A DNA stretch of 64,000 nucleotides from an uncultured Spirochaetota bacterium (lineage in GTDB: Bacteria > Spirochaetota > Spirochaetia > SZUA-6 > Fen-1364): NCBI GenBank assembly GCA_963734545.1, contig CAVTHO010000004.1:448001-512000 (forward strand). Direction: 5' to 3'. Below the pieces are notes generated by a model. That model made no database searches and was not told where the DNA came from. It worked only from the letters and a program-made list of their open reading frames with translations. Positions 2,125 through 34,182 of this stretch are shown in pieces. Position 1 is the stretch's first letter. Every line of letters starts with the position of its first letter. Both the position numbers and the translations under genes were made by a program.

Positions 2125-4267
2125 CTAGGCACGTCCCGCACGTTGTGATGCGGATTCATCCAGAACCTGCCGGATGGCCAGTCCCAGCTCCTTCTTGCGA
2201 GCAGGCTTCATGCATACCCTGCGGACGCCGGCCGTCGCGGCTTCGTCCTCTTCGACGGGCGAGCTGTAGCCCGTGCAGAGGATCACCGGAAGCGCGGCGT
2301 TGAGGGCGACGGCCTTCTTCGCGAGCTCAATACCGGTTATCACGGGCATGCTCTGGTCGGTGATGAGAAGGTCAAAGGCAAACCGATCCGCTGAAAGGAG
2401 CTCGAGTGCGTGCGCGGGATCTGTCACGGCGGTTACCCTGTATCCGAGCGTGGCAAGGAGCTTTTCCATCAACACGGCGATCGAGCTCTCGTCATCGACA
2501 TAGAGAATCCGCTCGTTCCCGCCGGGAACGTCGGTTCCCGCGCCGGCTTTGTCCGCATTCTCTGCGTCGACGCGCGGGAAGTAGAGCTTCATGGAAGTGC
2601 CTTTGCCCGGAGAGCTCTCCACGACAATGTCCCCGCCATGGTCCCGCATGATCCCGTACACAACCGAAAGCCCCATACCGGTGCCTTTGCCCGCGGGCTT
2701 GGTCGTGAAGAACGGCTCGAATGCCTTGTCGACGAGGGCCTTCTCCATCCCGACGCCTGTGTCCTGGACATCGATGACGGAAAAGACGCCGGGCCCGATG
2801 GCCCCGATCCGCCCGGGGACGGCCGCTGCAAGGCGTTCCTCCGACAGGCTCACGGTAAGGACACCCTTCCCGTCCATTGCGTGGACGGCATTCGAGGCGA
2901 GATTCATGACCGCCTCGTGGATCTGCGTGGCGTTCGCGATGACGGCCCCGGACTCCGCCTGCAGGCGGGAAGAGACGGTCACAGAGGACGGAATGGTCAT
3001 CTTCAGGAAGCCGAGGACCTCGTGCACGATGGTGCTGAGCCGGACGATGGACTTTTCCACCGGCCCTCCGCGGCTGAAAGTCAGGATCCGTGACACAAGG
3101 TGCTTCGCGCGCTCGCCCGCTTGAAGGATCTGCATAAGGCTTTGAGCAGCCTGGCCCTCCGGCGGGACGTCCTGAAGGGCAATCTCGGTGTGGCCGATAA
3201 TGACGCTCAGCATATTGTTGAAGTCGTGCGCGATTCCCCCCGCCAATTGCCCGATGGCCTGCATCTTCTGGTTCTGCCGCAGGCTTTCCTCCAGGTTCCG
3301 CCTCTGCTCCGCGTCTCTCTTGGCCTGTGTGACGTCCCTGAGGACCCCGTCAATGCCCAACCGCCGGCTGTCCGAATCCACGGTCCATCGGGCATTCGTC
3401 CACACGGTGGCCACCGCCCCGTCCTTCCTGATCACGTCCAGCTCGAAATTCTTCACGAGCCCCTGGCGTTCGAGAGTCTCCATGAGGACCGCGTGCCGTG
3501 AGGGGTCGCGGTAGAAGTCCGCAAACGGCCGGCCCACCATCTCATCGGGCTTGTATCCAAGCATCTGCTCGGAGGACGGGGAGACGATTGCCAGTTTCCC
3601 CTGCAGGTCCGTGCGGTAGCTGATATCCATCATGTTCTGGAAGAGCCCGCGGTAGCGCGATTCGGATTCACGAAGCGCCCGCGCCGCCTCGCGGCGGCGT
3701 TCCTCGTTCGCCATGAGGAGACTTCCCAGGAATACCCCGACGGAGATCGCCGATCCGTAGGGCAGCGTCATGGATTTCACCAGCCGCCAGCCTGCCTCCA
3801 GACTGCCGATGGGCAGGAAACCCGGGAGCAGGAATATCGTGGCGGCGATGGAAGAAAGCGCCAGCTTCCATGGCGACTCTATCCCCGGGCGAAGGGCTCG
3901 CAGCGTCGTCCCGGGCAATGACCGCCAGCCCCAGGCCCAGGATCCCGCCGTAGACCCCGATGCCGCCCAGAAAAGCCCGGTAGCCGGCTCCGATTGCCGC
4001 CGCAATCACGGCCGACAGCGGTCCTCCGAAAAAGCCGGCAAGGATGACGATGGCGTTCCGCTGGTCGACCTGGACCCCGGGGGCGACGGGAATTCTGACA
4101 TGCATGCAGATATAGACGAAGAGTCCGAATACGGTCCCCAGGATGACTTGCCGCCTGAAGCGGCTGCGTTTCTCCAGCGATTCGTTGAGGATTCCGTACA
4201 CGGCGACCATGATGATGAAGACGGCGAGGTTGCTGAAAAGACCGAAAAAGACGGAGGTGCCACCCAT
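2125..4267 (-). CDS. Hybrid sensor histidine kinase: LytS/5TM-type membrane domain, PAS, HisKA, HATPase and REC (frameshift near 3915)
   Basis: The N-terminal part has VQVDQRNAIVILAGFFGGP (5TM-5TMR_LYT-like). The C-terminal part has a PAS domain, H-box GGIAHDFNN, FEPFFTTK..GKGTGMGL and receiver motifs LYVDDE and LITDQSMP. Confidence 0.88.
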
Positions 4268-4454
4268 GAGGGAAAAATCCGTACGCGAGATTGCCAGAAG
4301 GCCGTCCACCCGCGTGAGGAAATCGACAAAGCCCTTCATAGGCTCGCCTCCGACGTCCTAGAGGGATTCTGAGTGCCGCTCCCAGTATGATACATGCCTG
4401 GATAGTAGCGCAAGTAGCCCCGCATCGAACTGAAATCCTATGCCTGACATGGAG

Positions 4455-4519
4455 ATATGCACATGTATATACACATATACACTTGATATCGTGAGCACTT
4501 CAGGATACACTTCTCACGA
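4455..4519. promoter_or_regulatory. Probable autoregulatory operator region of the Phd-VapC operon
   Basis: Perfect palindrome TGTATATACA (4464-4473), three ATATRCAC direct repeats and an inverted repeat TCGTGAG-N17-CTCACGA lie just upstream of the antitoxin start. Confidence 0.5.
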
Positions 4520-4527
4520 GGTGATGA

Positions 4528-4800
4528 ATGCGTACCGTGAACGCTTTGGAAGTTCGTAACAGGCTCGGCGCGCTCCTCGATGACCTGGAGCGGACCGGAG
4601 AGCCGGTGATCGTGAGCAAGGGGCGCCGGCCTCGCGCGGTGCTCATCAGCATAGAGGATTTCCAGAAGCGCTTTGTCGACCGCCAGACGGAGGAGCAGCG
4701 CCGGGCGCTCCTGGACCGGGTGAGGGCCGCGCGGGCTGCGGGCGTCGGCGGCGCGGACAGCCTCACGGTCCTTCGGGGCCTGCGAGGCGAGCTGAGATGA
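4528..4800 (+). CDS. Phd/YefM family antitoxin
   Basis: MRTVNALEVRNRLGALLD…GEPVIVSKGRRPRAVLISIEDF is a typical Phd N-terminus. It has an ATGA overlap with the PIN gene. Confidence 0.9.
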   Translation: MRTVNALEVRNRLGALLDDLERTGEPVIVSKGRRPRAVLISIEDFQKRFVDRQTEEQRRALLDRVRAARAAGVGGADSLTVLRGLRGELR

Positions 4801-5222
4801 AGTTCGTCATCGACGCATCCGTCGCTGCGCGGTGGTATATCCTGGAAGAATCGGACGCAAGAGCGGAGGAGGTCTTGCAGCGGGTGGTCAGGGAGCCGGA
4901 GTTGTTTGCCGTCCCTGAGCTTTTCTTCTTCGAGGTGCTGGCAGTCCTCGGGAGGATGCACCCCAATCCGCTTGAGACCTACCAGGATGCGTTCCTTCCT
5001 GTCGTGGAGGGCGGGGTTTTCCGCCACCCCATGACGTCTGCTCTTGCCGCGCACTCGTGGCGCTTCCTGGCCAGGGGACTCACCGGGTACGACGCATGCT
5101 ATGCAGGGCTGGCTGCCGAGCTCGGTGCACGGTGGATCACCTTCGACCGCCGCGCTCATCAGCTCATTGCATCAGAGAAGGTCTCCGTCGATCTGTCAGA
5201 GGGCTTGCCGGCGGATTGGTGA
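4797..5222 (+). CDS. vapC: PIN-domain (VapC family) toxin
   Basis: MKFVIDASVA…E…YDACYAGLA…ITFDRR carries the PIN acidic residues. Confidence 0.9.
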   Translation: MKFVIDASVAARWYILEESDARAEEVLQRVVREPELFAVPELFFFEVLAVLGRMHPNPLETYQDAFLPVVEGGVFRHPMTSALAAHSWRFLARGLTGYDACYAGLAAELGARWITFDRRAHQLIASEKVSVDLSEGLPADW

Positions 5223-5226
5223 GCAC

Positions 5227-6381
5227 GTGATTACGAGCCACGCAGGCGCAGATCCCTATAACGCAATCATCACCCGGGCCGACCCGCCTGCGGAGCCGCC
5301 AACCGCGGCCGCTGCCGGGGCAGCGGCTGCAGGGCCCCTGGCGGGAAGGACGCTGCTCGTCAAAGACCTGATCGATACGGCGGGGATCCGAACAACGTAC
5401 GGCTCGCGCCTCTATGCAGACCACGTGCCCAGCCGAAACGCCACCGTGGTGGAGCGGGCCATCCGTGCGGGCGCCGTTGTCGTGGGCAAGGCGAACCTGC
5501 CGGAGTTTGCGTGGAGCGTCCTGGGCAGGAACCCGTGGTATGGAACAGTTCACAATCCGGCAAAGCCCGGAAAGACGACAGGTGGTTCGAGCGCAGGGAA
5601 CGCGGCGGCCCTGGCTGCCGGGCTGGTCGATCTGGGGATCGGAACCGATACCGGTTGCTCCATCCGGCTCCCCTCCGCGGCATGCGGCACGGTGGGACTG
5701 AAGCCGCGATGGGGGAGGATTCCTGTTGATGGCATCTTCCCCCTGGCTCCATTGCTCGACACCGTGGGGCCAATGGCGCGCTCGGTCGCTGACGTGGCCC
5801 TGCTGTGGTCGGTGCTGGCGGAGCGGCCGGTTCCCGCGCCGAGGCTCCGCGGGTTGGTGGTCGGACTCCTGCGGCAGCCGCCGGGGCTCGGCGATGGCCG
5901 ACCAACCGAGACGAGCGACCTTGCCGAGGAATGGGTGGCTGACATCCAGCGGCTGGGCGCTCGCGTGGTCGAAGCGAGAGTGCCGGACGCGACTGCCAAT
6001 ACGTTTCCACAGTTCCTCCATGAGGCAAAGCAGAGCCACGCACTGACTTTCCCTTCCCGTGCGGGCGACTACACTGAGGTGGCGCGGAGGAAGCTCGAAG
6101 CCGCCCAGAAAGTGGATCCGGATGAGGTTGCCCTGGCGTATCGGGCAATCGAGGAATGGCGGCGCTACAAGCCTGAAGTGGACCTTTTCATCAGCCCTTG
6201 CTTTGCAATTGAGCTGCCGCCGGAGGACGCGGAAGAGGCGGATATCCGGCTGCCTCTCTCCTCGTTCATGCGGTGGGTCAACCTGACCGGCTGGGCAGGC
6301 CTCGCCGTCGGGAACCTCCAGCTCGTGGCCCCTGATGACGAAACGGTGATAGCGGCCGGGCTCGCGCTCGAAAGAGGCTAG
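5227..6381 (+). CDS. Amidase signature family protein
   Basis: Motifs VKDLID, GGSSAG and GTDTGCSIRLPS give the Lys-Ser-Ser triad. The GTG start at 5227 is inferred. Confidence 0.88.
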   Translation: MITSHAGADPYNAIITRADPPAEPPTAAAAGAAAAGPLAGRTLLVKDLIDTAGIRTTYGSRLYADHVPSRNATVVERAIRAGAVVVGKANLPEFAWSVLGRNPWYGTVHNPAKPGKTTGGSSAGNAAALAAGLVDLGIGTDTGCSIRLPSAACGTVGLKPRWGRIPVDGIFPLAPLLDTVGPMARSVADVALLWSVLAERPVPAPRLRGLVVGLLRQPPGLGDGRPTETSDLAEEWVADIQRLGARVVEARVPDATANTFPQFLHEAKQSHALTFPSRAGDYTEVARRKLEAAQKVDPDEVALAYRAIEEWRRYKPEVDLFISPCFAIELPPEDAEEADIRLPLSSFMRWVNLTGWAGLAVGNLQLVAPDDETVIAAGLALERG

Positions 6382-6534
6382 GCCCGGCTCACAGCGTCCG
6401 CAGCGAAATGGACGATGAAATCAATGGCCTCTGTTGCCGTTGCCGACTCAAGCGGCAAGACGACGCGCTCGTTATTCTATGCATGAACCGCTATTTGAAT
6501 GAGTTGACTGGACTATGGAGGACTCATTAACCTT

Positions 6535-18860: not shown

Positions 18861-21449
18861 ATGGAAAAACTGAAGGTCTCCAACGGCATTTTCTGGGTCG
18901 AGGTGCCGGAAGCTGATCTCCGAATCCTCTGCGGATGCCCGGCGGACAGCGTCAAGCACCTGATGAAGCGCGGCCTCATTGCGGAGCGGCAGAAGGCGGG
19001 GGTCAGCTACGAGACCGGACCCAACGCCATCCTGCTGTGCGACTCGCCCATCCAGAATGGCTGTTTCACCAATCTCTCCGAGTTCCCCGTCCTGCAGATG
19101 CTCTACCGGCAGGGCATGATCATCCCCGGGCACCCGAACAATACCGGCCGGAAGCCGATGCTCATCGGCCTCGAAGACCAGGTGCGCTCGCAGGCGCAGT
19201 ATATCTTCCGCGGCAACTACGGGCTGGCGTCGGAAGAAGAGATCACGGCGTGCGGCGTGCCCGCCGAAACCGCGCGTGAGATGATGCGTATGAAGCGCTG
19301 GTTCGCATTCGGCAGGATCCGGGAAACCGAAGAGCTGTTGTCCATGAAGATCGTGGACAAGGACGCCATCGAGCTTGCGCCCGGCGTGTTTGTGCACAGG
19401 AGAGGAATAAACCGCTGGGAGTTCCTGGCCGGCGCCGAATCCCTGGAGGTGGATCTCAACCTGGGCCCCGGTGAGGAATACGAGGCGCCCTTCAACCTCG
19501 GTTCCCACACGCTGCGCCGTGAGTACTTCTCCGTGATCCACATCGGGGAAGGAGACGGATGGGACCCTTCCAAGCCCTGCATGGGGAGCATCCTCTGCAT
19601 CCAGGGCCGGCTGTACCTCATAGACGCGGGCCCGAACATCCTCCACACGCTGCGGGCCCTGGGCATCGGCGTCAATGAGATCGAGGGGATCTTTCACACG
19701 CACTGCCACGACGATCACTTTGCCGGGCTCACCTCCCTGGTGCGCTCGGATCGGCGGCTGCGCTACTTCGCGGCGCCGTACGTGCGGGCGAGCGTGGAGA
19801 AGAAGCTGGCTGCGCTCATGGGCATCGATCAGCGGCGGTTCGCGCGCCTGTTCGACGTGCACGACCTCGTGCCGGGAGAATGGAACGCGGTGGAGGGTCT
19901 GGACGTGCGCCCCGTGTTCGCCCCTCACCCGGTGGAGAACACGGTCCTCTTCTTCCGCGCGCTGGATGAGAAGGGAGTGAAGACCTACACCCACCTTGCG
20001 GACCTGACCTCTCTCGAGGTGCTGGATCAGATGGTGACGAATGATCCGGCGAAAGACGGGATATCCCCGGAAACCCGGGACCTCTTCAAGCGGGAGATGC
20101 TGGAGCCGCTGGATTTGAAGAAGGTGGATGCCGGGGGAGGCCGCATCCACGGAAAGCCGGAGGACTTCTCCACCGACTCCTCGAGAAAGATCATCATGAG
20201 CCACTCGGCTGTCCCGCTCACGGAGGCGCAGAAGGAAATCGGCTCGAGCGCGGCGTTCGGGCAGAGCGACGTGCTGATTCCCGTCCAGCATCAGACCTAC
20301 ATCCTGCGCTCCGCCCACCGCTACCTCAAGACGTACTTCCCCGAGGTCTCCCGGCACGAGCTGGAGATGCTGCTCAACTGCAGCATCGCGGCATTCAACG
20401 CCGGCTCCATCATGATCAGGAAGGGCGAGCGAAACACCGACATCTTCCTGATCCTGAGCGGAACGGCGGAGGTGATCGACAGGGAGGCGGGCTTTCACAG
20501 CCGGCAGGCTGCCGGGGCCCTTGCCGGAGAGCTCTCCGCGCTGTCGAACGAGGCCTCCCACCGGACCTTCCGCGCGGAGAGTGACCTCGCTGCCCTGCGC
20601 ATCCCCTGCGAGACGTACCGGCATTTCATCCGTAGAAACGGCATCGAGGAGTCCGTGCTCAAGGTCCGGGAGAATCGCCAGCTCCTCTTCAATACGCGGC
20701 TGTTCGGCGACATGGTCTCATTTACCGCTCAGCGTGAGATCGCGCGGGTCATGGAGAGACGGCAGATGGCCATGGGAACGTTTGCGCCGCATGACTCGAA
20801 GCTGAGCCTGTTCATTCTGGCGGACGGGGAAATCTCGCTCCTGTCGGACGAGACTCCCATCGAGGTCATCTTTCCCGGAGACTGCTGGGGTGAGATATCT
20901 GTCGTGGAGGGACTCCCGACAGTATGCCGGGCGCTGGCGTTGCGGGATTCGGTATACTACGCCATTCCCGCTGAATCACTGCAGGAGTTCCCCAGCGTCT
21001 ACCTCAAGCTCCTCGAGGTCTTTGACCGGCGCCTGAAGATCATCCGGACGAAGTTCCATTTCGAGTGGCAGGACTTTTACGCCGTGGGCGTTGCGGGCAT
21101 CGATGATGAGCACAAGGAGCTCTTCGGACTTGCGAGTGAGCTGTCGCGAATCTCGACCGCGGAGGGAGCGGGGGCCCGCCGCGAATTGTGGGTGGCGTTT
21201 CTCGAGCGGGTGCGCTCACACTTCAAGAATGAAGAGTCCCTGCTCGAAGCCCGCGGGTATCCCCGGCTGCCGGCCCAGCAGGCGGATCACCGGTTCCTCC
21301 TGTCCGAGCTGGAGGACGTCGTGAAAACGGGCAAGTCCGGTGACGCCCTGCTGAAGGACTGGCTGATCCGCCACACGCTGATCGAGGACCGGCTTTTCCA
21401 GGACTTTTTCGCGGAACGAAGGGTGGGCAAGAAAGCCCGTCGCAGCTGA
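18861..21449 (+). CDS. Fusion of MBL-fold metallo-hydrolase, cNMP-binding domain(s) and bacteriohemerythrin
   Basis: HTHCHDDH MBL motif. cNMP-like IRKGE…FLILSG…GELSAL. C-terminal W..FYAVGVAGIDDEHKELF…HFKNEE…GYP…H…WLIRH…ED. Confidence 0.85.
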   Translation: MEKLKVSNGIFWVEVPEADLRILCGCPADSVKHLMKRGLIAERQKAGVSYETGPNAILLCDSPIQNGCFTNLSEFPVLQMLYRQGMIIPGHPNNTGRKPMLIGLEDQVRSQAQYIFRGNYGLASEEEITACGVPAETAREMMRMKRWFAFGRIRETEELLSMKIVDKDAIELAPGVFVHRRGINRWEFLAGAESLEVDLNLGPGEEYEAPFNLGSHTLRREYFSVIHIGEGDGWDPSKPCMGSILCIQGRLYLIDAGPNILHTLRALGIGVNEIEGIFHTHCHDDHFAGLTSLVRSDRRLRYFAAPYVRASVEKKLAALMGIDQRRFARLFDVHDLVPGEWNAVEGLDVRPVFAPHPVENTVLFFRALDEKGVKTYTHLADLTSLEVLDQMVTNDPAKDGISPETRDLFKREMLEPLDLKKVDAGGGRIHGKPEDFSTDSSRKIIMSHSAVPLTEAQKEIGSSAAFGQSDVLIPVQHQTYILRSAHRYLKTYFPEVSRHELEMLLNCSIAAFNAGSIMIRKGERNTDIFLILSGTAEVIDREAGFHSRQAAGALAGELSALSNEASHRTFRAESDLAALRIPCETYRHFIRRNGIEESVLKVRENRQLLFNTRLFGDMVSFTAQREIARVMERRQMAMGTFAPHDSKLSLFILADGEISLLSDETPIEVIFPGDCWGEISVVEGLPTVCRALALRDSVYYAIPAESLQEFPSVYLKLLEVFDRRLKIIRTKFHFEWQDFYAVGVAGIDDEHKELFGLASELSRISTAEGAGARRELWVAFLERVRSHFKNEESLLEARGYPRLPAQQADHRFLLSELEDVVKTGKSGDALLKDWLIRHTLIEDRLFQDFFAERRVGKKARRS

Positions 21450-21450
21450 C

Positions 21451-21948
21451 CTACGCCTCCTTCCTGCTCCCGAACTCTATCTTTCCCTTCTGCGCGAGCC
21501 GGGTCAGGAAATAGATCGTGCTTTCCTTTGAAAGCTTGAAGTGCGCGGCTGCCTTGTCCACGTCCACCCCGCCTGATTCTTTCGTGAACTGGAGCATCTC
21601 TTCCTCGATCTGCCCGGCCCATTCGTCGAAAAGGCCGCGCACCTCGGGCGTGGCGAACCGCGCGGTCTGCGCGCCTTCGGTCATTGCGCCCATCATCTTT
21701 CTGCACATGTCCCAGGGCATTTCGCTGTCTGATTCCCCGGCTTTTCCGCCGCCCATCATCATGCGCATCATCCCCATTGGGCCCCCTTCGCCCATCATCT
21801 TGTGCATCATGCCCTCCATCATGCTGCTCTTTTCCTCGGCGGAGAGACCTTCCATGAACTTCTCCATCATGGCTTCCATCGCCTTCTGCTTTTCCTCCGC
21901 GGACATCTTGTCCATCATGCCGTCCATCATCCGTTCTTTGATTCCCAT
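21451..21948 (-). CDS. Methionine-rich hypothetical protein with a C-terminal wHTH-like segment
   Basis: Runs such as MMEGMMHKMMGEGGPMGMMRMMMGG, then FATPEVRGLFDEW. AGGAGG RBS. Confidence 0.8.
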   Translation of the reverse strand: MGIKERMMDGMMDKMSAEEKQKAMEAMMEKFMEGLSAEEKSSMMEGMMHKMMGEGGPMGMMRMMMGGGKAGESDSEMPWDMCRKMMGAMTEGAQTARFATPEVRGLFDEWAGQIEEEMLQFTKESGGVDVDKAAAHFKLSKESTIYFLTRLAQKGKIEFGSRKEA

Positions 21949-22226
21949 GGGATCCTCCTGAAACTGTTTAGTGACGCGGTGATCTTGCTGTCGGTGAGCC
22001 GGTAGAGCACAAAGGGCCCCTGTCTCGTTGTCTGCACGATCGAGACCTGCTTCAGGACCTTCAGGTGGTGGGACACGAGGGGTTGTGAGAGCTTGAGGGC
22101 CTTCACGACCTCGTTCACCGACCGCTCTTCCTTCTCCAGAAAGAAGATGATCCGAAGTCGGTTCACGTCCGCCAGGGTCTGAAAAAGCGCGCTCAGGGTT
22201 TCCAGCTCATTCATATAAATAGCCAT
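21927..22226 (-). CDS. ArsR/SmtB family transcriptional regulator
   Basis: FQTLADVNRLRII…LSQPLVSHHLKVLK…RQGPFVLYRL. Confidence 0.9.
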   Translation of the reverse strand: MAIYMNELETLSALFQTLADVNRLRIIFFLEKEERSVNEVVKALKLSQPLVSHHLKVLKQVSIVQTTRQGPFVLYRLTDSKITASLNSFRRIPWESKNG

Positions 22227-22300: not shown

Positions 22301-22348
22301 TTGACAGGCGGAAGCTTTCGTGTTAGCACTTCTGCAGGTGAGTGCTTT
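22301..22348 (+). promoter_or_regulatory. Putative promoter of the methyltransferase-GH3-kinase operon with an inverted repeat
   Basis: TTGACA (22301-22306), 17-nt spacer containing an extended TG, then TAGCAC. The inverted repeat AGCACT-N10-AGTGCT overlaps the -10 and the GTG start. Confidence 0.5.
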
Positions 22349-23054
22349 TCAGAAAGTGTACTTCGATCTGGTCTACAATCCGCTCTATGACGCCACCACG
22401 GCGAGGCTCAGCCGCTACAAGGCCCTTCAGCAGAAATGCCTCCAGGCGCTGGATCTGGAGGACGCCGGCAGCCTCCTGTGCGTGGGCCTCGGGACAGGCA
22501 ACGAGCTGGTGGCTGCCCTGCGGGCTGCCGCGCAGGTCAGGGTTTCGGGGATCGATCTTTCACCCTCGGCCCTGGCATCGAGCAGGCGGAAGCTGCGCCT
22601 TGCGGGCAGAACGGCAGACCTGCAGATCATGGACGCCTCCGCCATGCGCCACCCCGACGGCAGCTTCGATCGCGTGCTGTGCGTGCACGTCCTGGACTTC
22701 GTGGACAACCCGGGCCGGGCGGTTCGGGAGATCGTGCGCGTCCTGGCCCCGGGCGGCCGGTTCGTGATAACATTTCCTTCCCGGTTGGAGGGGCCCGCCC
22801 TTGGAGCGGCACTTGCGCGGGACGAGGTCCGCACCGCACTGCGCTCCGGCCGTCATCCCCTGGCCGTAGTGACGGATCTGCTGTTCAAGTTCATAATGGC
22901 CATTGTGTACGTGCCGCTGCTGGCGCGCAGCGGGCATCGCGTTTTTTCCGCGCAGCAGGTGCGCGCCCTTTTCGAGAAGCTGCCGGTGCGCGCGCTGGCA
23001 GTCGAGGAAGAGCGTGCGTACCAGGACTTCATTGTGACAGGAGAAAAGTCGTAA
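22338..23054 (+). CDS. Class I SAM-dependent methyltransferase
   Basis: LLCVGLGTGNE, GIDLS, DGSFDRVLC and RVLAPGGRF motifs. The stop overlaps the GH3 start (TAATG). Confidence 0.88.
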   Translation: MSAFQKVYFDLVYNPLYDATTARLSRYKALQQKCLQALDLEDAGSLLCVGLGTGNELVAALRAAAQVRVSGIDLSPSALASSRRKLRLAGRTADLQIMDASAMRHPDGSFDRVLCVHVLDFVDNPGRAVREIVRVLAPGGRFVITFPSRLEGPALGAALARDEVRTALRSGRHPLAVVTDLLFKFIMAIVYVPLLARSGHRVFSAQQVRALFEKLPVRALAVEEERAYQDFIVTGEKS

Positions 23055-24665
23055 TGCTGCCCGAGGACGCCTATTTCAAGACCCTTGACAGCCCGGAGCT
23101 GTGGAAACGCTACTGCGGTTTCCTGGACCTGACCGTCGAGGACTTCATGCAGATCCAGCGCTCGCTGCTCGCGGAAGAGCTGTCCCTGGTGGCGGACAGC
23201 ATCCTCGGCAGGAAGATCCTCGGGGCCAGGCCGCCGCTCTCCATCGAGGAGTTCCGCCAGTCCGTGCCCTTCACGACCTACAGTGACTACGAGCCGTACC
23301 TGAGCGAGAAGCGCGAGGATGCGCTCGCCGCCAGACCCGCCGCATGGTGTCATTCCTCGGGCCGCAGCGGAAAGTTCAAATGGGTCCCCCACAGCGAGCT
23401 GTTCATGGAGAAGGCCACCCGCAACTGCATGGCGGCCCTCATCCTGTCCGCCGCGTCCCGCCGCGGCGAGATCGCGCTCGCGCCCGGCGTCCGGATCCTC
23501 ACCGTGCTTCCCCTCGCGCCCTACACATCGGGCACCATCTTCGAGCACGTGAGAAAGCGGTTCACCTTCCAGCCCCTGCCGCCGCCGGAATCCGTGGAGT
23601 CACTCTCCTTTCCCGAGCAGGTCAGCCGCGCCTTCCAGATGGCGCTCAGGGACGGGTTCGATTTTGCCGGTGCCATCGCCAGCGTGCTCGTGCGGATGGG
23701 GGCGCAGATGGCGGGCCATGCCGCAAGGACCTCGAAGCTGTCCCCGGCCGCGTTCCATCCCAAGGTGCTTTTCCGACTGCTGCGCGGCCTTGTCAGAAGC
23801 CGGCTCCAGAACCGGCCCGTGTATCCACGGGACCTGTGGAGCTCCCAGGGGGATCCTGGCCGGGGGCGTGGATACCAGCATCTACTGCGACGACATCGAG
23901 AAGTACTGGGGCGTCACCCCCTTTGACATGTATGTGAGCACCGAGACCCTGTTCGTCGCAATGCAGAGCTGGGCCAAAGCGCACATGACCTTCCTGCCGG
24001 ATTCGGTCTTCCTGGAGTTCGTTCCCCACACCGGCAGGGAAGGAGCGGAGCCGAGGCGGGACAGCGCCCTGCTGCTGGACCAGCTCGAACCGGGCGGCCT
24101 CTACGAGGTGATCGTCACGCAGTTCCACGGCATGCCCCTCCTGCGCTACCGCATCGGGGACGTGATCAGGGTGGTGAGCATCGGCGATGAAAAGACGGGA
24201 ATAAAGCTGCCCCAGGTCGAGGTCCGGCGGAAAGTCGGGGAGGCGATCAACCTCGGGAGCCTGTGCAACCTGGACGAGCGGGCGCTGTGGAGCGCCATCG
24301 CGGCCTCGGGCATTCCCTATGCCGAGTGGACGGCCCTGAAGGAGTACGATCATCATCAGACGTTTCTCCGGCTGATCATCGAGCTGAAGGCGCCCTGCAC
24401 CGCGAAAGAGGTCAGCCGGCTCGTGCACGATGAGCTGAAGAAGGTGGACCTGGACTACGAGGACGTCGAAAGGTTTCTCGGGCTCAACCCGGTCCGCACG
24501 ACCATCATCTCCGCGGGGAGCTTTGCGCGCTATGTCGAGGCGAGGATCCGCGAAGGTGCCGTGCTCTCCCACCTGAAGCCCGCGCACGTGAACCCATCGT
24601 CCGAGATGCTCAAACTGCTGCTCGGTGTGGGCTCGATAGTGGATGAGGAGAGACTGCGACAATGA
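23054..24665 (+). CDS. GH3 family acyl-adenylate-forming (acyl acid-amido synthetase-like) protein (frameshift near 23845)
   Basis: Shows EEFRQSVPFTTYSDYEPY, motif I HSSGRSGKFKWVP, motif II YVSTE, FLEFVP and motif III LLRYRIGDVI. The halves lie in ORFs 22436-23926 and 23664-24665. Confidence 0.85.
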
Positions 24666-27482
24666 GCAACGCCGGTTTCGTTCTCAGCCCGCTGATCGCG
24701 GCGGCCATGACCTGCATCCTTATCATCCTGGTTTTTCCCGCGATCTACCGCGACAGGAGCCGCCAGGTCTTCCTTCTCGTTCTGCTCAGCCTCGAGCTGT
24801 GGGCGCTCTGCACATTCGCAATGCGCTTCAGCCGGACCACGGACGCGGTCCTGATCTGGGACCGCCTGATATCCGCCTGCGTCATGGGCCTGTACGCGAC
24901 CTTCTTCCACTTCTGCCACCTCTACCTGGGCCGCAAGAGCCGCTGGCCGATGTACATCCTGTACGCGGGGACGCTCACGGCAATGGCGATCGGGCTGTTC
25001 ACGGACCTCGTGGTCAGGGGTGTCACGCGGCTCGATATCGGGTACGCCCCCCAGGTCGGTCCTGCGGCCTACGCGATGTTCGCTCCCATGCAGGTGCTCA
25101 TCATCGCAAACATGATCCGGCTCCTGCACGCGCGGCGCCGAGAAGCCTCGCTGTTCATCCGCAGGCGCCTGCTGGCCCTTGCCCTCGCCGGGCTGCTCCC
25201 GTTCTTCGGGGCCGTCGCGGACGGCTTCACGGATCTCCCTCCCATGGGGATCTGGGCCAATCTCGCTTTCTGCACGATCTGTACCGTCGTCATTCTGCGC
25301 TACCGCCTGTTCGACATCCGCGCGCTCGCCCGCACGGGCCTGGTCCGCCTCCTCATCGGCTCGATGATCGCGGTGCCCTACATCGGCGCGATCCTCGTTG
25401 CGAACGCCCTGCTGCGTGACCGCGAGAGCCTGCTCTGGATCTACGTTGTTTCCATCCTTGCCTACGCGCTGGTCATGTGGCCGGCCTACGAATGGGCGCG
25501 GCGAAGCCTGGACCGGCTCTTCAACAGCGAAAAGTATGACCACCTGCAGGCGGATGCGTGACCTTGCCCGCGGCGCGGACGCCTTCAGCGGGTCCCACGA
25601 GACCTCCAGCAGGCTGACTGCCCTCATGCAGCGGGCGCTGAACGCCACCTCTGTCTCGCTTCTGCAGCCGCTCTCGGACGGCCAGGGAATGTATCTCGTC
25701 GCGAGCAATGGTTCGCCGTGCAGCGCAAAGGGCGCGATCCTCGGCGCGGCGAGCCCCCTCGTCGACTGGTTCCACAAGCACCAGACCACGCTCTCCATGC
25801 GGACCCTGACCGTGGAGCCATTGCTGCAGAACATCCCCCAGGCGGAAAAGGCGGCGCTGGACGAGCTTCGGACCACGCTGCTGGCGCCGCTCCTGACGGC
25901 GCACGGCGCTCTTACGGGCATCCTCGTGCTCGGCCCGAAGGCATCCCGACGGCAGTACAACCTGGACGACATCCAGCTTCTGGAGAACCTCGGCGGTGAG
26001 GCGGCCATGGCGCTGGAGAACGCCGGGCTGTACCGCGACACGGTGCGGGCGCGGGAGACCCTGGAAGCGTGGCTGAACAACCTGCCCGGACGTGGTGGCA
26101 ATCGTGGACCGGGACGACGTCATCCGGTTCCTGAACAGGGAGGGTATCGGACCGGCTGGGCGTTCGGCCCGGGCAGCGCTCGTTCCTGCGCGCGGGGCCC
26201 TCCGGAGGAGAACGGCGCTCCGCGGCGTTTCACGGAGACTATCCGGGGAAGGGAGTACGAGATCGCCTCCGCGCCGCTCGTCGAGCCCGGAGGGCAGCTT
26301 TCCTCGGTGTTCGTGATGCGCGACATCACGGAGCGCAAGCAGGAGCAGGCGGAGAGGGAGCAGCTGGAGGCCCGCGCGCGGCTGGCCAGCCACCTGGCGT
26401 CGATCGGCGAGATGGCGTCGGGGATCGCGCACGAGATCAACAACCCGCTGACCGCGGTGATCGGCTACAGCCAGCTCCTCAACGAAGAAGCGCTGCCGGA
26501 GGAGGCGCGTGAGGCGGTGCGCCAGGTCCGGCAGGGCGCCACCCGGGTGGCCGGCATCGTGCAGAGGCTCCTCACCTTCGCCCGGCAGAGAAAGCCGCAG
26601 CGCGCCGCAGTGGACATGAACGAGGTCATCCGCTCCACACTCGCGCTGCGCGAATATGCCATGCGGACGGGCAACATCTACGTCACGACCCGTCTGGACC
26701 CGTCGCTCCCCCGCACCGTGGCGGACGGCCAGCAGATGCAGCAGGTGCTGCTCAACCTGATCGTCAACGCGGAATGGGCCATGAGCAGCGCCCACGGCAA
26801 GGGCGTGCTTCGGATCGTGAGCGAGAAGCACGGGGAGAACATTCACGTCCTCGTGCAGGATGACGGCCCCGGGGTCCCCCGGGAGATCCAGGACCGCATC
26901 TTCGACCCCTTCTTCACCACCCGGGAGATCGGCCAGGGCACCGGCCTGGGTCTCAGCATCTGCCACGGGATCGTGAGCGAGCACAGCGGCAGGATCTGGG
27001 TGGTGAGCGATGGGGCGCAGGGGAGCGAGTTTCACCTGACCATCCCCATCGTGGCCCCTGATTCTCCGCCCGTGGAGGCCGCCGCGATGCGGCAGGAGCC
27101 CGCCGGATCGCACACGCGCATGCTCGTGGTGGATGACGAGCCGTCGATTCGCGAGCTGCTGAAGGCGATTCTCGAGCCCATGGGCCACCGGGTGGACGAC
27201 GCCGCCGACGGCCGTTCCGCCATCGAGCGCGTGAAGGCGAACCGCTACGGCGTTATCCTGCTCGACGTCCGCATGCCCGACATGAGCGGGCTGGAAGTGT
27301 TCCAGCAATTGAAAGAGATCGCCGGCTCGATCACCTCGCGGGTGGTGTTCATGACCGGAGACCTGATGGCGGAGGAGACTCGCGCGCTGCTGGAGGAGAC
27401 AGGAGCGCCCGCGCTTGCCAAGCCCTTTGAATCGAAGGATCTCATGCTGGCCGTGGAAAGGGTTTTGAAGGCGACGCGCTGA
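24662..27482 (+). CDS. Hybrid sensor histidine kinase: N-terminal 7TM (HisKA_7TM-like), GAF, PAS, HisKA, HATPase and REC (frameshifts near 25550 and 26085-26200)
   Basis: Multi-TM N-terminus ending ILRYRLFDI, then GAF (LLAPL…GILVLGPK…DDIQLL), SGIAHEINNPL, FDPFFTT..GQGTGLGL and VVDDE/LLDVRMP. ATGA overlap with GH3. Confidence 0.88.
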
Positions 27483-27545
27483 CCGCCTGCCGGCTTGTTT
27501 GCGACCGCCATTTCTTTTCGTCAAAACAATTCGTATATTGTCGCT

Positions 27546-28505
27546 ATGTACAGTAGACTTTCCCTGTTGCGCGGTGCCCGTCCGGCCGCGGAGAACCAGG
27601 TGGGCTGGACCCCGGTGCAAGGCATCGGCAACACGCCGCTCCTGCGCCTGGACCGGATATCGCGCAACCTCCCCCCCCAGGTGCAGCTCCTTGGCAAGGC
27701 AGAGTGGATGAATCCCGGCGGATCGGTCAAGGACAGGCCGGCGGCCAGCATGATCCTGGACGGGGAGCGCCGCGGCGTGCTCCGACCGGGACTTACAATC
27801 ATCGATGCAACGTCCGGGAACACCGGGGTTGCCTACGCAATGATCGGCGCCTCCCGGGGCTATCGGGTAAAGCTCTGCGCCCCGTCGAACACGGAGGAGG
27901 GAATCCTCGGCGCACTTCGCGCATACGGCGCGGAGCTGATCCTCACCGACCCTGCCCAGGCGATGGATGGCGCCAGTCGAGAGGTTGCCCGCATCATGGC
28001 AGCGTCACCGGAGAGCTACTTTTTCCCCGACCAGATGAACAACGATGCGAACTGGAAGGCCCACTACGAGGGCACCGCGAAGGAGATCTGGGAGCAGACC
28101 GGCGGCCGGGTGACGCACTTCGTGGCAGGCGTGGGCACCGGCGGCACCCTGGTCGGCACGGGCAGGAGGCTGCGGGAGCTGAACCCGGATGTCCGCATAG
28201 CGTGCGTCCAGCCGGCATCTCCCCTGCACGGGCTCGAGGGACTGCGCCACCTGCCGACAACGATCGTCCCGCGCATCTACGACCCCACGCTTTCCGATGA
28301 GACAGTGGCCGTGGAGACCGAAGCGGCGCAGGCAATGGTCGTGCGGCTGGCCCGGGAGGAAGGGATTCTCGTGGGAGTGTCCGCGGGGGCCGCGGTAGTG
28401 GCAGCGCTCGCGGTGGCTTCCCGGCTGGAACGCGGTGTCGTGGTGACGGTGCTGCCGGAAGGCGGCCGCAGGTTCATCAACGAGAGTTTCTGGGAGGGAG
28501 CATGA
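27546..28505 (+). CDS. PLP-dependent cysteine synthase family protein (CysM/CysO-dependent type likely)
   Basis: IGNTPL, NPGGSVKDR (PLP Lys), DATSGNTG and GVGTGGT. Confidence 0.9.
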   Translation: MYSRLSLLRGARPAAENQVGWTPVQGIGNTPLLRLDRISRNLPPQVQLLGKAEWMNPGGSVKDRPAASMILDGERRGVLRPGLTIIDATSGNTGVAYAMIGASRGYRVKLCAPSNTEEGILGALRAYGAELILTDPAQAMDGASREVARIMAASPESYFFPDQMNNDANWKAHYEGTAKEIWEQTGGRVTHFVAGVGTGGTLVGTGRRLRELNPDVRIACVQPASPLHGLEGLRHLPTTIVPRIYDPTLSDETVAVETEAAQAMVVRLAREEGILVGVSAGAAVVAALAVASRLERGVVVTVLPEGGRRFINESFWEGA

Positions 28506-28930
28506 GAGTCATTGTCCCCGCGGAAATCCTGGAGCAGATGCGACGGCATGGCGAGGAGACCTACCCGCACGAATGCTGCGGCTTCATGCTGGGAAGCGCG
28601 GAAGACGGGGTGCAGCGGATCGTGGAGGTCCGCAGCCAGGCCAACGAGCGCACCGAGTCGAAAGAGAACCGGTTTCTGATCACGCCCGAGCAGTTCAAGG
28701 CCGCGGAAACGGCAGCCCGCAAGGCCCGACTTCAACTGGTGGGCATCTATCATTCACATCCCGACAGCCCTGCCCGTCCCTCCGAGTACGACCGGGATCA
28801 CGCATGGCCGTGGTTCAGCTACATCATCGTCTCGGTGAAGAAGGGCAAGGCAGATGAGGCACACGCATGGCAGCTCAAGGACGACCGATCGGGGTTCGAG
28901 GCTTTGAAGCTTGAGAAAGGAGATTCATGA
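28502..28930 (+). CDS. JAMM/MPN+ (M67, Mec-like) metalloprotease
   Basis: YPHECCG and YHSHPDSPARPSEYD give the E…HxH-x7-S-x2-D motif. Confidence 0.92.
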   Translation: MRVIVPAEILEQMRRHGEETYPHECCGFMLGSAEDGVQRIVEVRSQANERTESKENRFLITPEQFKAAETAARKARLQLVGIYHSHPDSPARPSEYDRDHAWPWFSYIIVSVKKGKADEAHAWQLKDDRSGFEALKLEKGDS

Positions 28931-30372
28931 TGACAAAGGTACGTGTGGAGATCCCCACCGCGCTGCGCGCATTCGCCGGCAATCAGGACGCGGTGGAGGT
29001 GGCGGGAGAAACGGTGGGAGAGCTCCTGCAGGGACTGGCCAGCGCCTACCCGCAGATGAAGAAGCACGTTTTCGACGATCAGGGCAAGCTGCGCAACTTC
29101 GTCAATGTCTACGTCAACGACGACGACATCAAGCACCTGGACAAGGAGCAGACGCGCGTGGGCGCGAAGGACGTGATCAGCATCATCCCGTCCGTGGCCG
29201 GCGGGTCGGATCACGGCGGCAACGGAGCGCTCACCCAGCAGCAGGTCCAGCGCTACAGCCGGCACCTCATCATGCCGGAAGTCGCCATGGAAGGGCAGCA
29301 GAAGCTGCGCCACGCGCGTGTGCTCGTGGTCGGCGCAGGGGGGCTCGGCTCGCCGGTGCTCTCCTACCTGGCGGCAGCGGGAGTGGGAACGCTCGGGATC
29401 GTGGATTTCGACACGGTTGATTTCACCAACCTGCAGCGACAGATCATCTATTCGACGGGGGACGTGGGCAGGCCCAAGCTCGAGGCAGCGGCGGACAGGA
29501 TCCGCGCCATGAACCCGGATGTCCGGGTGGTGATGCACGAGGATCGCCTGACTTCTGAGAATGCGCTTTCGATACTGAAGAACTACGATGTGGTGGTTGA
29601 CGGAACCGACAACTACCCTACCCGCTACCTTGTCAACGATGCCTGCGTGATGCTCGGGATCCCCAATGTCTATGGCAGCATCTTCCGGTTCGACGGCCAG
29701 GCCTCGGTATTCTGTCAGAAGGACGGTCCCTGCTACCGATGCGTCTATCCTTCCCCTCCGCCCCCCGGGCTGGTTCCAAGCTGCGCGGAGGGAGGCGTTC
29801 TCGGAGTTCTCCCCGGCATCATTGGAACGATCCAGGCCACCGAGGCGGTCAAGATCATTTTGGGCAAGGGCACCACGCTTGCGGGGCGTCTCCTTGTCCT
29901 GGACGCCATGAAGATGCACTTCCGCGAGCTGAAGCTGAGGAAAGACCCCGCCTGCCCCGTCTGCGGCGAGCATCCCACCATCAAGGAGCTCATCGACTAC
30001 GAGCAGTTCTGCGGCATCCGCGGTGAGGAGATGGAGGCCAAGGACCTGGGCAAAGAGTGGGAGATAAGCCCCCTGGCGCTGCAGGAGAAGATCCGGGCGG
30101 GAGATGATCTGGTCATCCTCGATGTCCGCAACCCCGAGGAGGCGCAGATCTCGCGGATCCAGGGCAGCATCCTCATTCCCCTCGGCGAGCTGCCCGAGCG
30201 CGTGGCGGAGCTGAACACGGCGGACCAGATGGTAGTGCACTGCAGAATGGGCGGACGCAGCGCCAAGGCCGTGGAGTTCCTCCGCTCGGTGGGATTCAAG
30301 AAGGTGAAGAACCTCGTAGGCGGCATCAACGCCTGGGCAGAGGAAGTGGACAAGACGATGGCGAAGTACTAG
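28927..30372 (+). CDS. moeB: Ubiquitin-like sulfur carrier (MoaD/CysO) fused to MoeB/MoeZ adenylyltransferase and rhodanese
   Basis: The N-terminal Ubl IPTALR…NVYVNDDDI…IIPSVAGG continues in frame into RYSRH, GAGGLG, NLQRQ, CYRC, SCAEGGVLG, CPVC and rhodanese HCRMGGRS. Confidence 0.92.
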   Translation: MMTKVRVEIPTALRAFAGNQDAVEVAGETVGELLQGLASAYPQMKKHVFDDQGKLRNFVNVYVNDDDIKHLDKEQTRVGAKDVISIIPSVAGGSDHGGNGALTQQQVQRYSRHLIMPEVAMEGQQKLRHARVLVVGAGGLGSPVLSYLAAAGVGTLGIVDFDTVDFTNLQRQIIYSTGDVGRPKLEAAADRIRAMNPDVRVVMHEDRLTSENALSILKNYDVVVDGTDNYPTRYLVNDACVMLGIPNVYGSIFRFDGQASVFCQKDGPCYRCVYPSPPPPGLVPSCAEGGVLGVLPGIIGTIQATEAVKIILGKGTTLAGRLLVLDAMKMHFRELKLRKDPACPVCGEHPTIKELIDYEQFCGIRGEEMEAKDLGKEWEISPLALQEKIRAGDDLVILDVRNPEEAQISRIQGSILIPLGELPERVAELNTADQMVVHCRMGGRSAKAVEFLRSVGFKKVKNLVGGINAWAEEVDKTMAKY

Positions 30373-31665: not shown

Positions 31666-32535
31666 TCAGCTGACGAAATTGTCCAGAACGTGCTTGAAAC
31701 CTTCAGAGATTTCGGTCATGGGAGGCCGCAGCTCGGCTGACTTGATGAGCCCCTGCTTTGCAAGGATGTATTTGACAGGAGCAGGACTCGGCTCCTTGAA
31801 GAGCAGCGGAATCATCTTCGTGAGAATGTTCCACTCCGACAAGGCAGTCCGGAGATCGTTCCTTTGAATGGAATCCCACACGTGGATGAACCGATCCGTC
31901 TGCAGGTGTGCCGAGGCCATGATTCCCCCGTTTCCCCCGCCGACAGCATTGAAGTAGAAGAGGATGTCCTCACCCGTCAGGACGGAGAAGCCGGGATCCC
32001 GCTCCCTCAGGAGCTCGATGGATTGCGGCACGTTCCCGCTGGAATCCTTGATGCCGACGATGTTCGGAATTCTCGACAGTCTCAGGGTGGTATCGTTCTC
32101 GACATTGCGGCCGGTCCGATGAGGGATGTTGTAGATGAGGACCTGTTTGTCGGTGGCCCCTGCAACCCGGGCATAGTGCTCGTAAATGCCTTCCTGAGAA
32201 GGAAGATTGTAGGAAGGCGAGGTCACGAGGTAGCCGGAGATGCTGAAGCGATTCAGATTCACTATCAGGCGGACCGCCCTCTGCGTACTGTTGCTGCTCA
32301 CTCCGACGTAGACAGGCACCTTGCCTTTGACGACATCGACGGTGGCCTCGACAATCTGGTTGTACTCGTTCTCTTCTATAGTGGGAGACTCACCTGTCGT
32401 TCCCAGCGGGATGAGCCCGTGGACACCCTTGGCCAGGTAGTGGACCACCAGCTGCCTGTACGCTGCAATATCCACCCTGCCGTCGATGAAAGGAGTGACC
32501 AGGGGAATCAGAACACCGTTTACTCTGCCTGCCAC
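31666..32535 (-). CDS. dapA: 4-hydroxy-tetrahydrodipicolinate synthase
   Basis: LVTPF, LGTTGESPT, IYNIPHRTG, GIKDSSG and PAPVK. GTG start after GAAGGAGG. Confidence 0.88.
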   Translation of the reverse strand: MAGRVNGVLIPLVTPFIDGRVDIAAYRQLVVHYLAKGVHGLIPLGTTGESPTIEENEYNQIVEATVDVVKGKVPVYVGVSSNSTQRAVRLIVNLNRFSISGYLVTSPSYNLPSQEGIYEHYARVAGATDKQVLIYNIPHRTGRNVENDTTLRLSRIPNIVGIKDSSGNVPQSIELLRERDPGFSVLTGEDILFYFNAVGGGNGGIMASAHLQTDRFIHVWDSIQRNDLRTALSEWNILTKMIPLLFKEPSPAPVKYILAKQGLIKSAELRPPMTEISEGFKHVLDNFVS

Positions 32536-34182
32536 TGCAATGCCTCCTTCAGTGACTCGAGCACGGGCGTGATGTCTTTCTCGCATCCCACAGCTATGCG
32601 AACGAGAAACCGGGGGAGCCCGATCTCGGCGAGCTGTTCGTCCGTATCGTCATAATGGGTGAGCAGGGTGTAGGGACAGAGAAGCGTCAAATCCGATCCC
32701 AGGCTTGGTGCCTTGATGATGCCGGGAAGCGGAGAATCATAGAACCCGCGGAGGCCTTCCAGGCTGTTTCGGGTCAGCACAAAGCTGATGACACTGCCCG
32801 GGTCCGCGCAGCAGGCGTCGGGCAGTGGAGTAGCTGCGGTGCGACGGGAGGCCGTTGAAAAAGACGCGCTGGACGCCCGGGTGCTCCGCCAGGAAGGAAG
32901 CCACCCTGGCTGCGTTCTCATTGAATCGGCGCATCCGCTCGGCCAGGCTGCCCAGGTTCCTCTCCAGCGCTTCGGCTTCCAGGGGAGACATCCTGTCGTT
33001 CAGCAGGTCCTGATTGTCGGCAAGGACCCGAGCCCGCTCGGCATCACGCACGATCACCGCTCCTCCGGCATGGTCGTTGCGGCCGTTGAGGTACTTTGTC
33101 GTGCTGTGAATCACGTAGTCCGCGCCGAGCTCGAAGGGACGACAGTTCTCGGGCGTGGCGAAGGTGTTGTCGACCACGAGGGGAATCCCGCGCGCCCTCG
33201 CGATCCGGGAGAGAACTTCCAGATCGGGTACGTCGCTCAAAGGGTTGGTGATGGTTTCCGTGAGGATCGCCGCAGTCTGATTCCCCGCGAGATCGTCGAG
33301 CCTCTCGAGCTCATCCACGCCGAGAAACACGTTGCGCCCGAGACGGAGGCTCACGAACGTGTCGTTGTAGAGATGGCCTACCGCAACGATCTGCGATCTG
33401 CCTGGTCGGCGAAGAACGTCGAGAACCCGGGTGATTGCGCTCATTCCGGAAGAATAGAGAAACGCCTGCTTTCCGCCCTCCAGCCGGCAGAGCGCCTCTG
33501 CCACGCGTCGGGAAGCCCCAGGGTCGCTCCGGTCGCCCCTGCCGCTCAGGAGGCAATCCGCCGACCTGCTCGAGAGGATGGGACCGCGTCGCTTCATCTG
33601 CTCGGCGAGCCGGTCCATGGTGCGGTCCGCATTCCCCAGCACGGCACCCGCCTGCACCGTTTCCTGTCCGGCGCCGAGCCCCACGACAAAGAATCGCGCG
33701 CCGGTCGCTTCAGCGGGCGGCTCCGGCAGCCGGCCGTGCCCGGACCTCACGACGGCGATAACTGCATCGTCCCGACCAAGATCCGGCGGTATCTCGTCTG
33801 CCCGCGCAATGACTTGAACAGCAACTCCCTCCCGGTCGCACGCGGGAAGAAAAGTATTGTCGGTGAAAGGCGGTGCCGTGTCCTTTCCATTCAGGAGAAT
33901 GATCCTGCTCTTTATGCCCGGTTTGTGGAGACAGAGAACAAGCTCGAGGAGCGCGATCTCGAATGATTCCGCCAGTTTGCAATGCCGGCAGTGGAAGCTG
34001 CTTTTCAGCGCCTCTTCGAGCTGCCGCAGCCGGGGATGGGAGACGAACCTGTAGTATCCGTGGTCGAACTCCGCCGTGCCTTCCTTGAACGCGATGACGT
34101 CGGCCAGAGTCGGCAGGGTCCCTGTGATCGAATATTCACCGCCGACGGCCTCGCCCGGCTTGCAGTCCTTGAGATCAGCCAT
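32520..34182 (-). CDS. Cys/Met metabolism PLP enzyme (cystathionine gamma-synthase-like) with an N-terminal extension (frameshift near 32790)
   Basis: SSGMSAI, ETITNP, VVDNTFATP and HSTTKYLNG (PLP Lys). The C-terminus APSLG…LVRIAVGCE lies in ORF 32520-32921. Confidence 0.82.

Follow-up and report, generated by a model that had tools for sequence, protein, structure and literature searches.

A divergent GH3-family ligase linked to a seven-transmembrane sensor: a candidate chemical-signalling cassette of uncultured bacteria

Why should the gene of a GH3-family ligase be coupled to the gene of a membrane sensor kinase? The question is raised by a locus in an uncultured Spirochaetota bacterium, within a 64,000-nucleotide stretch (assembly GCA_963734545.1, contig CAVTHO010000004.1, positions 448,001 to 512,000), hereafter referred to as the window. 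The contig (C4) comes from a metagenome bin of 5.1 Mb in 10 contigs that is 89% complete and 4.9% contaminated. Three genes follow one another here on the same strand and encode, in order, a methyltransferase, a GH3-family ligase and a hybrid sensor kinase. The original prediction, made from the DNA letters, described them as coupled, and both overlaps are present in the open reading frame list and in the sequence: TAATG (23052-23056) holds both the TAA that ends the methyltransferase and the ATG that begins GH3, and ATGA (24662-24665) holds the ATG of the kinase together with the TGA that closes GH3. As set out below, linkage between this GH3 subfamily and its sensor is strict, subfamily-specific, reciprocal and independent of the sensor output.

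A GH3 subfamily and one sensor subtype are linked across phyla

The order methyltransferase, GH3, kinase is kept in 7 of the 41 genomes of the same order, at 55-90% identity, and more distant GH3 paralogues (33-39% identity) likewise have a sensor as the next gene downstream. A wider scan took one genome per species and used an 8-row GH3 alignment only. The best 80 of its 162 confirmed stretches comprise 63 loci from Chloroflexota (44 of them from Dehalococcoidia), 9 from Spirochaetota, 4 from Clostridia and a few from deltaproteobacterial bins; simple greedy gene calling recovered the GH3 gene at 77 of the 80. Among the 70 loci with a called downstream gene, the gene next 3' of GH3 passes the Pfam cut-off for HisKA_7TM at 59. 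The 11 misses are made up of one miscall, three minus-strand genes, two pieces at contig ends (one with a weak match) and five large plus-strand genes. Four of these five, which the Pfam model misses, still group with the GH3-linked sensors in a tree, and at one of the three minus-strand loci (L088) the sensor lies upstream of GH3.

The linkage is also seen from the side of the sensor. A profile of the sensor module returned 15 strong matches in the 41 relatives; 13 of them are immediate neighbours of GH3, and another is the second of two tandem sensors in a GH3 cluster. The control was made with canonical GH3 loci from the same phylum, taken at a Pfam E of 1e-38 or better: such a sensor was found within about 5 kb at 0 of 20, whereas all 5 loci of the divergent GH3 subfamily in that phylum have it. 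Chance adjacency is ruled out by this contrast and by the reciprocal count (13/15). Conservation of the GH3-kinase pair, on which the original prediction had staked itself, thus holds across phyla. The genome of the window carries a single GH3 gene and about six HisKA_7TM loci, and the GH3 adjoins the sensor described here; in a tree, the five other HisKA_7TM domains of the genome fall outside all 57 GH3-linked ones.

The C-terminal output of the linked sensors varies. Among 58 sensors it is kinase-type in 51, HD_5 in 3, STAS in 1 and undetermined in 3. The kinase outputs are of four kinds in all; they carry HisKA, HisKA_3 (5 loci) or HisKA_2 (2 loci), with or without a receiver, and 16 are hybrids. 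Because the linkage persists whatever the output, the partner of GH3 is the membrane input module.

Individual loci vary on this arrangement. At four Chloroflexota loci (L094, L095, L104 and L102), the membrane module linked to GH3 is fused not to a kinase but to an output of the HD-GYP-like (HD_5) or STAS kind. L021 (G023:C1:2110000-2124000) has two sensors of the subtype in tandem behind its GH3 (229 and 215 bits), so that one ligase precedes a duplicated receptor. L113 (G006:C3:294000-306000) holds a GH3-less sensor at 2707-6435 that scores 140 bits against the profile; a gene for a 199-aa protein without a Pfam family is coupled upstream of it, a receiver-HD_5 gene is divergent, and the sensor may use another partner enzyme.

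The co-phylogeny that had been proposed as a check is there: the GH3 and sensor trees, built from 56 pairs, are congruent, with 25 of 53 bipartitions in common (shuffled pairings share 0.19 on average and 2 at most), and the Pearson correlation of the GH3 and sensor distances is 0.82, a value reached by none of 999 Mantel permutations. In the two genomes with two cassettes, each GH3 is paired with the sensor of the matching clade. The spirochaete cassette nests within a Dehalococcoidia clade in both trees, with support of 99-100. The nesting fits transfer of the whole cassette between phyla, in either direction, as both trees are unrooted.

The three cassette proteins

The ligase gene (23054-24665, plus strand, in two frames) encodes a GH3-family acyl-acid amido synthetase of a divergent 'WKRYCGF' subfamily, as assigned by Pfam, orthologue alignment and an orthologue model. 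Over both frames, the GH3 N-terminal, GH3_M and GH3_C models score 43.2, 50.7 and 27.3 bits, respectively, each against a cut-off of 23.6 bits, and both pieces of the protein are 91-92% identical to an intact 536-aa orthologue (P0005). The blocks SSGRSGK, YVSTE and YRIGD, which we take to be adenylation motifs 1 to 3, sit on invariant or near-invariant columns of 56 relatives, in agreement with the three motifs read from the DNA at the outset. The window protein has the residues S102/G103, T296/E297 and Y365/G368/D369, each of which is invariant in these relatives or conserved in 90% or more of them.

The predicted structure of a GH3 orthologue with 79% identity has a mean predicted local distance difference test score (pLDDT) of 90.1. 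Its top Foldseek matches are GH3.6, GH3.5, OsGH3-8, GH3.15 and JAR1 (E of 4e-21 to 1e-19), with PaaK-type ligases ranking behind the plant GH3 structures, and a GH3 profile run against the PDB sequences matched plant GH3 only (10 matches). By the orthologue model, the window GH3 is thus predicted to have the two-domain GH3/ANL fold, with solved GH3 enzymes as its nearest neighbours. Its predicted function is to form an amide from an acid and an amino acid with ATP.

Bacterial GH3 proteins had been described in the original prediction as having no assigned pathway, a view that is now outdated. In Singulisphaera acidiphila, the GH3-like enzyme OlsH uses free fatty acid, ATP and Mg2+ to produce N-acyl-ornithine, and its gene adjoins that of the N-methyltransferase OlsG (excerpts of a 2025 report, PMC12493201). 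OlsG is related to phospholipid N-methyltransferases according to excerpts of a 2026 review (PMC12971839), and in those excerpts the orders listed with OlsH homologues (at least 30% identity and 70% coverage) include neither Spirochaetota nor Chloroflexota.

The methyltransferase gene (22338-23054, plus strand) encodes a class I S-adenosylmethionine-dependent enzyme that we tentatively place in the PmtA/OlsG-like type by Pfam and by its match to 8ys9. Methyltransf_11 scores 76.4 bits on the open frame (22320-23051). This frame is open from 22320; the orthologues align only from 22338 (tblastn with the orthologue in the related genome G002), which makes the GTG at 22338 the likelier start. The closest solved relative is 8ys9, a phosphatidylethanolamine N-methyltransferase, with E of 1.4e-15 for the single sequence. 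A 29-sequence profile improves this match to 4.5e-23, with the N-terminal PxYD block included and the next match at 1.1e-16; it also matches phosphoethanolamine N-methyltransferases in the PDB. The NCBIfam PmtA equivalog gives 40 bits against a cut-off of 390, and no equivalog cut-off was reached. In sequence, the enzyme looks like the PmtA/OlsG-type amine N-methylases that act on phospholipids or ornithine lipids, and not like a carboxyl methylase. Carboxyl O-methylation of a hormone-like acid, hinted at in the original prediction, was dropped as the favoured role and kept only as a less likely one, as the best solved matches are amine N-methylases.

Directly upstream of GH3, a Methyltransf_11 gene is found at 33 of 71 loci, almost all of them within the GH3 clade of the window. 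The other upstream genes are unrelated or, at 4 loci, encode an HTH_17-receiver regulator. The methyltransferase is thus an accessory of one GH3 clade and lies outside the universal core of the cassette.

The hybrid sensor histidine kinase occupies 24662-27482 (plus strand), as placed by its Pfam domains, with the breaks in its frame located by tblastn and orthologue alignment. Its membrane sensor module (24692-25558) consists of HisKA_7TM (PF16927, up to 25318) and two further helices predicted from the orthologue model; HisKA_7TM covers residues 11-219 at 44.3 bits (cut-off, 28.6). The module is followed by a GAF domain at 25596-26021 (Pfam GAF_3, GAF_2 and GAF over residues 67-208 of the frame 25398-27479), by the kinase core at 26406-27050 (HisKA, 58.4 bits; HATPase_c, 82.1 bits) and by a C-terminal receiver at 27123-27455 (Response_reg, 84.6 bits), all on the plus strand. 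No Pfam score was obtained for PAS in the window kinase because that stretch is out of frame. The intact G002 orthologue passes for PAS_4 (27.2 against 23.1 bits) and shows the whole layout: seven-transmembrane domain 11-219, GAF 312-453, PAS_4 from 471, HisKA 581-642, HATPase_c 687-795 and receiver 820-930. Pfam, with the orthologue for PAS, hence agrees with the families first read for the three proteins (methyltransferase, GH3 and a seven-transmembrane, GAF, PAS, kinase and receiver protein), and no equivalog-level name was found in NCBIfam for any of the three.

A model of the orthologous 300-residue sensor module (pLDDT 88.1) comprises nine helices, seven with a hairpin and two more, and has no large extracellular domain. 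Its residues 1-224 superpose in VIA-align on the transmembrane bundles of G-protein-coupled receptors (GPCRs), with Z scores from 18.3 down to 14.3 at rank 50; the best superpositions include 8oyx_B (Z 18.3, root mean squared deviation 3.0 over 203 residues) and the GABA-B receptor (Z 17.7). A Foldseek search of the sensor model against the PDB gave nothing at E of 0.001 or below. The GPCR likeness of the model is a common arrangement of helices and no proof of common descent.

The window copy and its surroundings

The original prediction called for the frameshifts of the window copy to be corrected. They are real in the window sequence, and alignment with intact orthologues places them. The single break in GH3 falls at a five-G run (23843-23850), after PRDLWS and ahead of GILAGG. 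The kinase is broken at about 25550-25553 and by three further single-base insertions between 26085 and 26201 (tblastn and alignment); these three shift the frame over about 40 codons in the PAS region and then restore it. Every one of the five events adds a single G to a G-run, which in four cases precedes an A, and short-read contigs from four wetland metagenome runs omit one base at 23843, at 25552, at 26085 or 26089, at 26147, and at 26194 or 26201.

The extra bases are probably systematic consensus errors of the assembly. The alternative, which we regard as doubtful, is that the cluster is a decaying pseudogene copy and that the frameshifts are true mutations. Two observations argue for decay and count against an intact cassette in this genome. 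Comparison of 14 genes with the G002 contig over about 20 kb found three split genes (GH3, the kinase and an unrelated gene at 32523-34182), and four of the five frameshifts in the compared region fall within the 4.4 kb of GH3 and kinase; this clustering is what keeps real decay in play. In addition, the contigs lacking the extra bases are only about 90-95% alike, with a value of about 94% for the one that spans the GH3 break (X3 record 19); no listed contig from the four runs that is at least 99% alike spans any break, so these contigs represent DNA of relatives and not of this strain. Against decay stand the uniform nature of the five events, the 91-92% identity of the GH3 pieces to an intact protein, the lack of in-frame stops or other lesions, and the further frameshift in the unrelated gene, which has a like context. 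A sister bin of like assembly (L016) also has scattered frameshifts, including in ThiS-ThiF. The unrelated gene encodes a 552-aa protein on the minus strand and is shifted relative to its G002 orthologue near 32794-32801, in a G/C-run context like that of the GH3 and kinase breaks; this break hints at motif-linked consensus errors in the assembly.

The single promoter first proposed for the three genes was not confirmed. A consensus promoter scan found no plus-strand site upstream of the methyltransferase, and the sole strong match (11/12, sigma-70-like) faces away, towards a divergent ArsR gene. This gene belongs to a divergent pair (21451-22226, minus strand) lying between an upstream signalling gene and the methyltransferase. 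The pair encodes an ArsR/SmtB-type regulator (best NCBIfam match TsoR, under the cut-off) and a methionine-rich protein of 165 aa without a Pfam family, in a region of lower G+C content (0.56-0.60). In two relatives, G002 and G014, the upstream gene lies within 6 bp of the methyltransferase with no ArsR pair between them, from which the pair looks inserted in the window.

The upstream gene itself (18861-21449, plus strand) encodes an 862-aa protein with a metallo-beta-lactamase fold, two cyclic-nucleotide-binding domains and a C-terminal hemerythrin; where it stands directly 5' of the cassette, as in the two relatives, the two may share an operon. Directly 3' of the kinase (27495-30372, plus strand) lies a sulfur-carrier cysteine synthesis cluster, conserved in both relatives, that comprises a pyridoxal phosphate enzyme (CysM-like), a JAB/MPN peptidase and a ThiS-ThiF-rhodanese fusion.

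A candidate signal and its known counterparts

Our preferred explanation, held with evenly balanced confidence, is that the adjacent sensor reads an N-acyl-amino-acid-like amide produced by GH3, either alone or together with the methyltransferase. GH3 would adenylate a carboxylic acid and then couple this acid with an amino acid or another amine. With OlsH as the analogue, the acid would most likely be fatty or otherwise lipophilic and the product such an amide. In the clade of the window, the PmtA/OlsG-like enzyme would then N-methylate the head group of this amide. The adjacent nine-helix sensor may read the product, or the balance of precursor and product, either in its membrane-embedded GPCR-like bundle or in the GAF domain behind the bundle, and would thereby set the activity of its own kinase and receiver. 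The substrates, the site of methylation, the binding of a ligand and action inside or between cells are what we infer here.

The layout of synthase, modifier and receptor put forward at the outset therefore stays the leading reading, on the conserved linkage and the congruent trees. It is weakened by its modifier, which is not universal: no more than 33 of the 71 upstream genes encode the methyltransferase. Other observations also weigh against it. The cassette has no exporter, which leaves a cell-to-cell signal without support. One sensor of the subtype, in G006, has no GH3 within 5 kb. Congruence of the two trees is expected for any tightly linked genes and shows co-inheritance as a unit, nothing further. 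All 80 loci of the wider scan are records of metagenome-assembled genomes, and related loci are not independent of one another. A search for a fusion of GH3 and sensor found no GH3 homologue of 938-2675 aa, which is weak evidence.

The same genes could instead serve envelope homeostasis, in a loop like DesK-DesR-Des: the sensor would read the state of the membrane, and GH3 and the methyltransferase would be its regulated output, making an (N-methylated) aminolipid that remodels the membrane, with only indirect feedback from the product. OlsH and OlsG make membrane ornithine lipids (excerpts of PMC12493201), the methyltransferase resembles N-methylases of lipid head groups, and the sensor has no large extracellular domain. 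The second gene downstream of GH3 encodes a response regulator at 20 of 55 loci (15 OmpR-type, 2 LuxR-type, 2 receiver-only and 1 receiver-HD), and at 17 of the 55, the OmpR- and LuxR-type ones, a DNA-binding regulator thus follows the kinase. However, no alpha/beta-hydrolase or acyltransferase family, and no OlsI/OlsA-type gene, was found among the 71 upstream and 55 second-downstream genes, nor any such hydrolase or acyltransferase beside the window genes; as no O-acyltransferase or alpha/beta-hydrolase accompanies GH3, a two-chain, bilayer-forming lipid is without support. Moreover, the linkage persists where the output is HD-GYP-like or STAS and not transcriptional, and membership of a regulon would require neither so strict a pairing with a single sensor subtype nor overlapping stop and start codons. 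We consider such a loop unlikely.

Alternatively, the ligand could be an external or metabolic carboxylic acid that GH3 conjugates and thereby activates, as JAR1 does, or removes for the sake of adaptation, the cell making no signal of its own. The linkage evidence favours this conversion or quenching as much as it does synthesis of a signal, and plant GH3 enzymes act in this way (in part from excerpts of PMC12493201). The 71 upstream and 55 second-downstream genes include no dedicated acid-biosynthesis gene, as such a role would have it, but no uptake system either, and the sequence does not separate conversion from our preferred explanation. We rate it as rather improbable.

Taken furthest, signal synthesis by GH3 would make the cassette a new class of bacterial chemical signalling, mobile among anaerobic Chloroflexota, Spirochaetota and a few other phyla, in which a GH3-made lipid amide of the N-acyl-amino-acid type, N-methylated in one clade, is read directly by a GPCR-fold receptor with kinase, HD-GYP or STAS output. 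It would be a prokaryotic counterpart of the GH3 enzyme that makes a hormone conjugate bound by a receptor, and the HisKA_7TM sensors, an orphan family, would gain their first class of ligands. We offer this only tentatively.

HisKA_7TM is a widespread sensor domain of bacteria and archaea. To our knowledge, bacterial GH3 enzymes number in the thousands and OlsH alone among them has a proven reaction. The near-obligate, subfamily-specific pairing described here provides a concrete ligand hypothesis for one sensor subtype and a physiological role for one GH3 clade. If the preferred explanation is true, GH3-type conjugation would be a signalling device outside plants, in uncultured anaerobes of wetlands and sediments. 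Excerpts of two papers (PMC5847659, PMC6944256) give HisKA_7TM only as a sensor domain, without a ligand, and a search of the literature on GH3 with histidine kinases, two-component systems or gene neighbourhoods, supplements excepted, found no description of the GH3-sensor linkage.

Among known systems, OlsH-OlsG-OlsI of S. acidiphila shares with the cassette a bacterial GH3-like, ATP-dependent amide synthetase beside a class I methyltransferase related to the phospholipid N-methyltransferases, a likeness drawn from descriptions of OlsH and OlsG. The window cassette differs in lacking an O-acyltransferase of the OlsI type (alpha/beta-hydrolase), its third gene being that of a membrane sensor kinase.

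In phcBSRQ of Ralstonia, the methyltransferase PhcB makes methyl 3-hydroxymyristate, which is sensed by the kinase PhcS (excerpts of PMC8578825 and PMC11960443). The gene order, from small-molecule methyltransferase through membrane sensor kinase to response regulator, resembles that of the cassette, and the Phc signal is derived from a fatty acid, as these excerpts describe. By contrast, the cassette has an additional GH3 ligase, which is its universal partner, whereas its methyltransferase is optional and resembles amine N-methylases and not a fatty-acid O-methylase (PhcB and PhcS were compared by description).

In the agrBDCA and comQXPA quorum-sensing operons, the genes that make the signal, a ribosomal peptide, come immediately before those of a polytopic membrane histidine kinase and its regulator. 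The cassette shows no evident gene for a precursor peptide; with these operons it shares the position of its putative signal-making genes upstream of a membrane kinase.

Plant GH3 enzymes (above all JAR1/GH3.11) have the same fold, Pfam domains and conserved nucleotide-binding blocks as the window subfamily, to which they are about 15-19% identical in structural alignments. JAR1 makes the conjugate of jasmonate and isoleucine (JA-Ile) that is the true ligand of its receptor, a logic like the one suggested here for the cassette, and the auxin-conjugating plant GH3s remove a signal. The partner of JAR1 is a soluble F-box co-receptor, whereas the cassette GH3 shares its operon with its own partner, a membrane histidine kinase.

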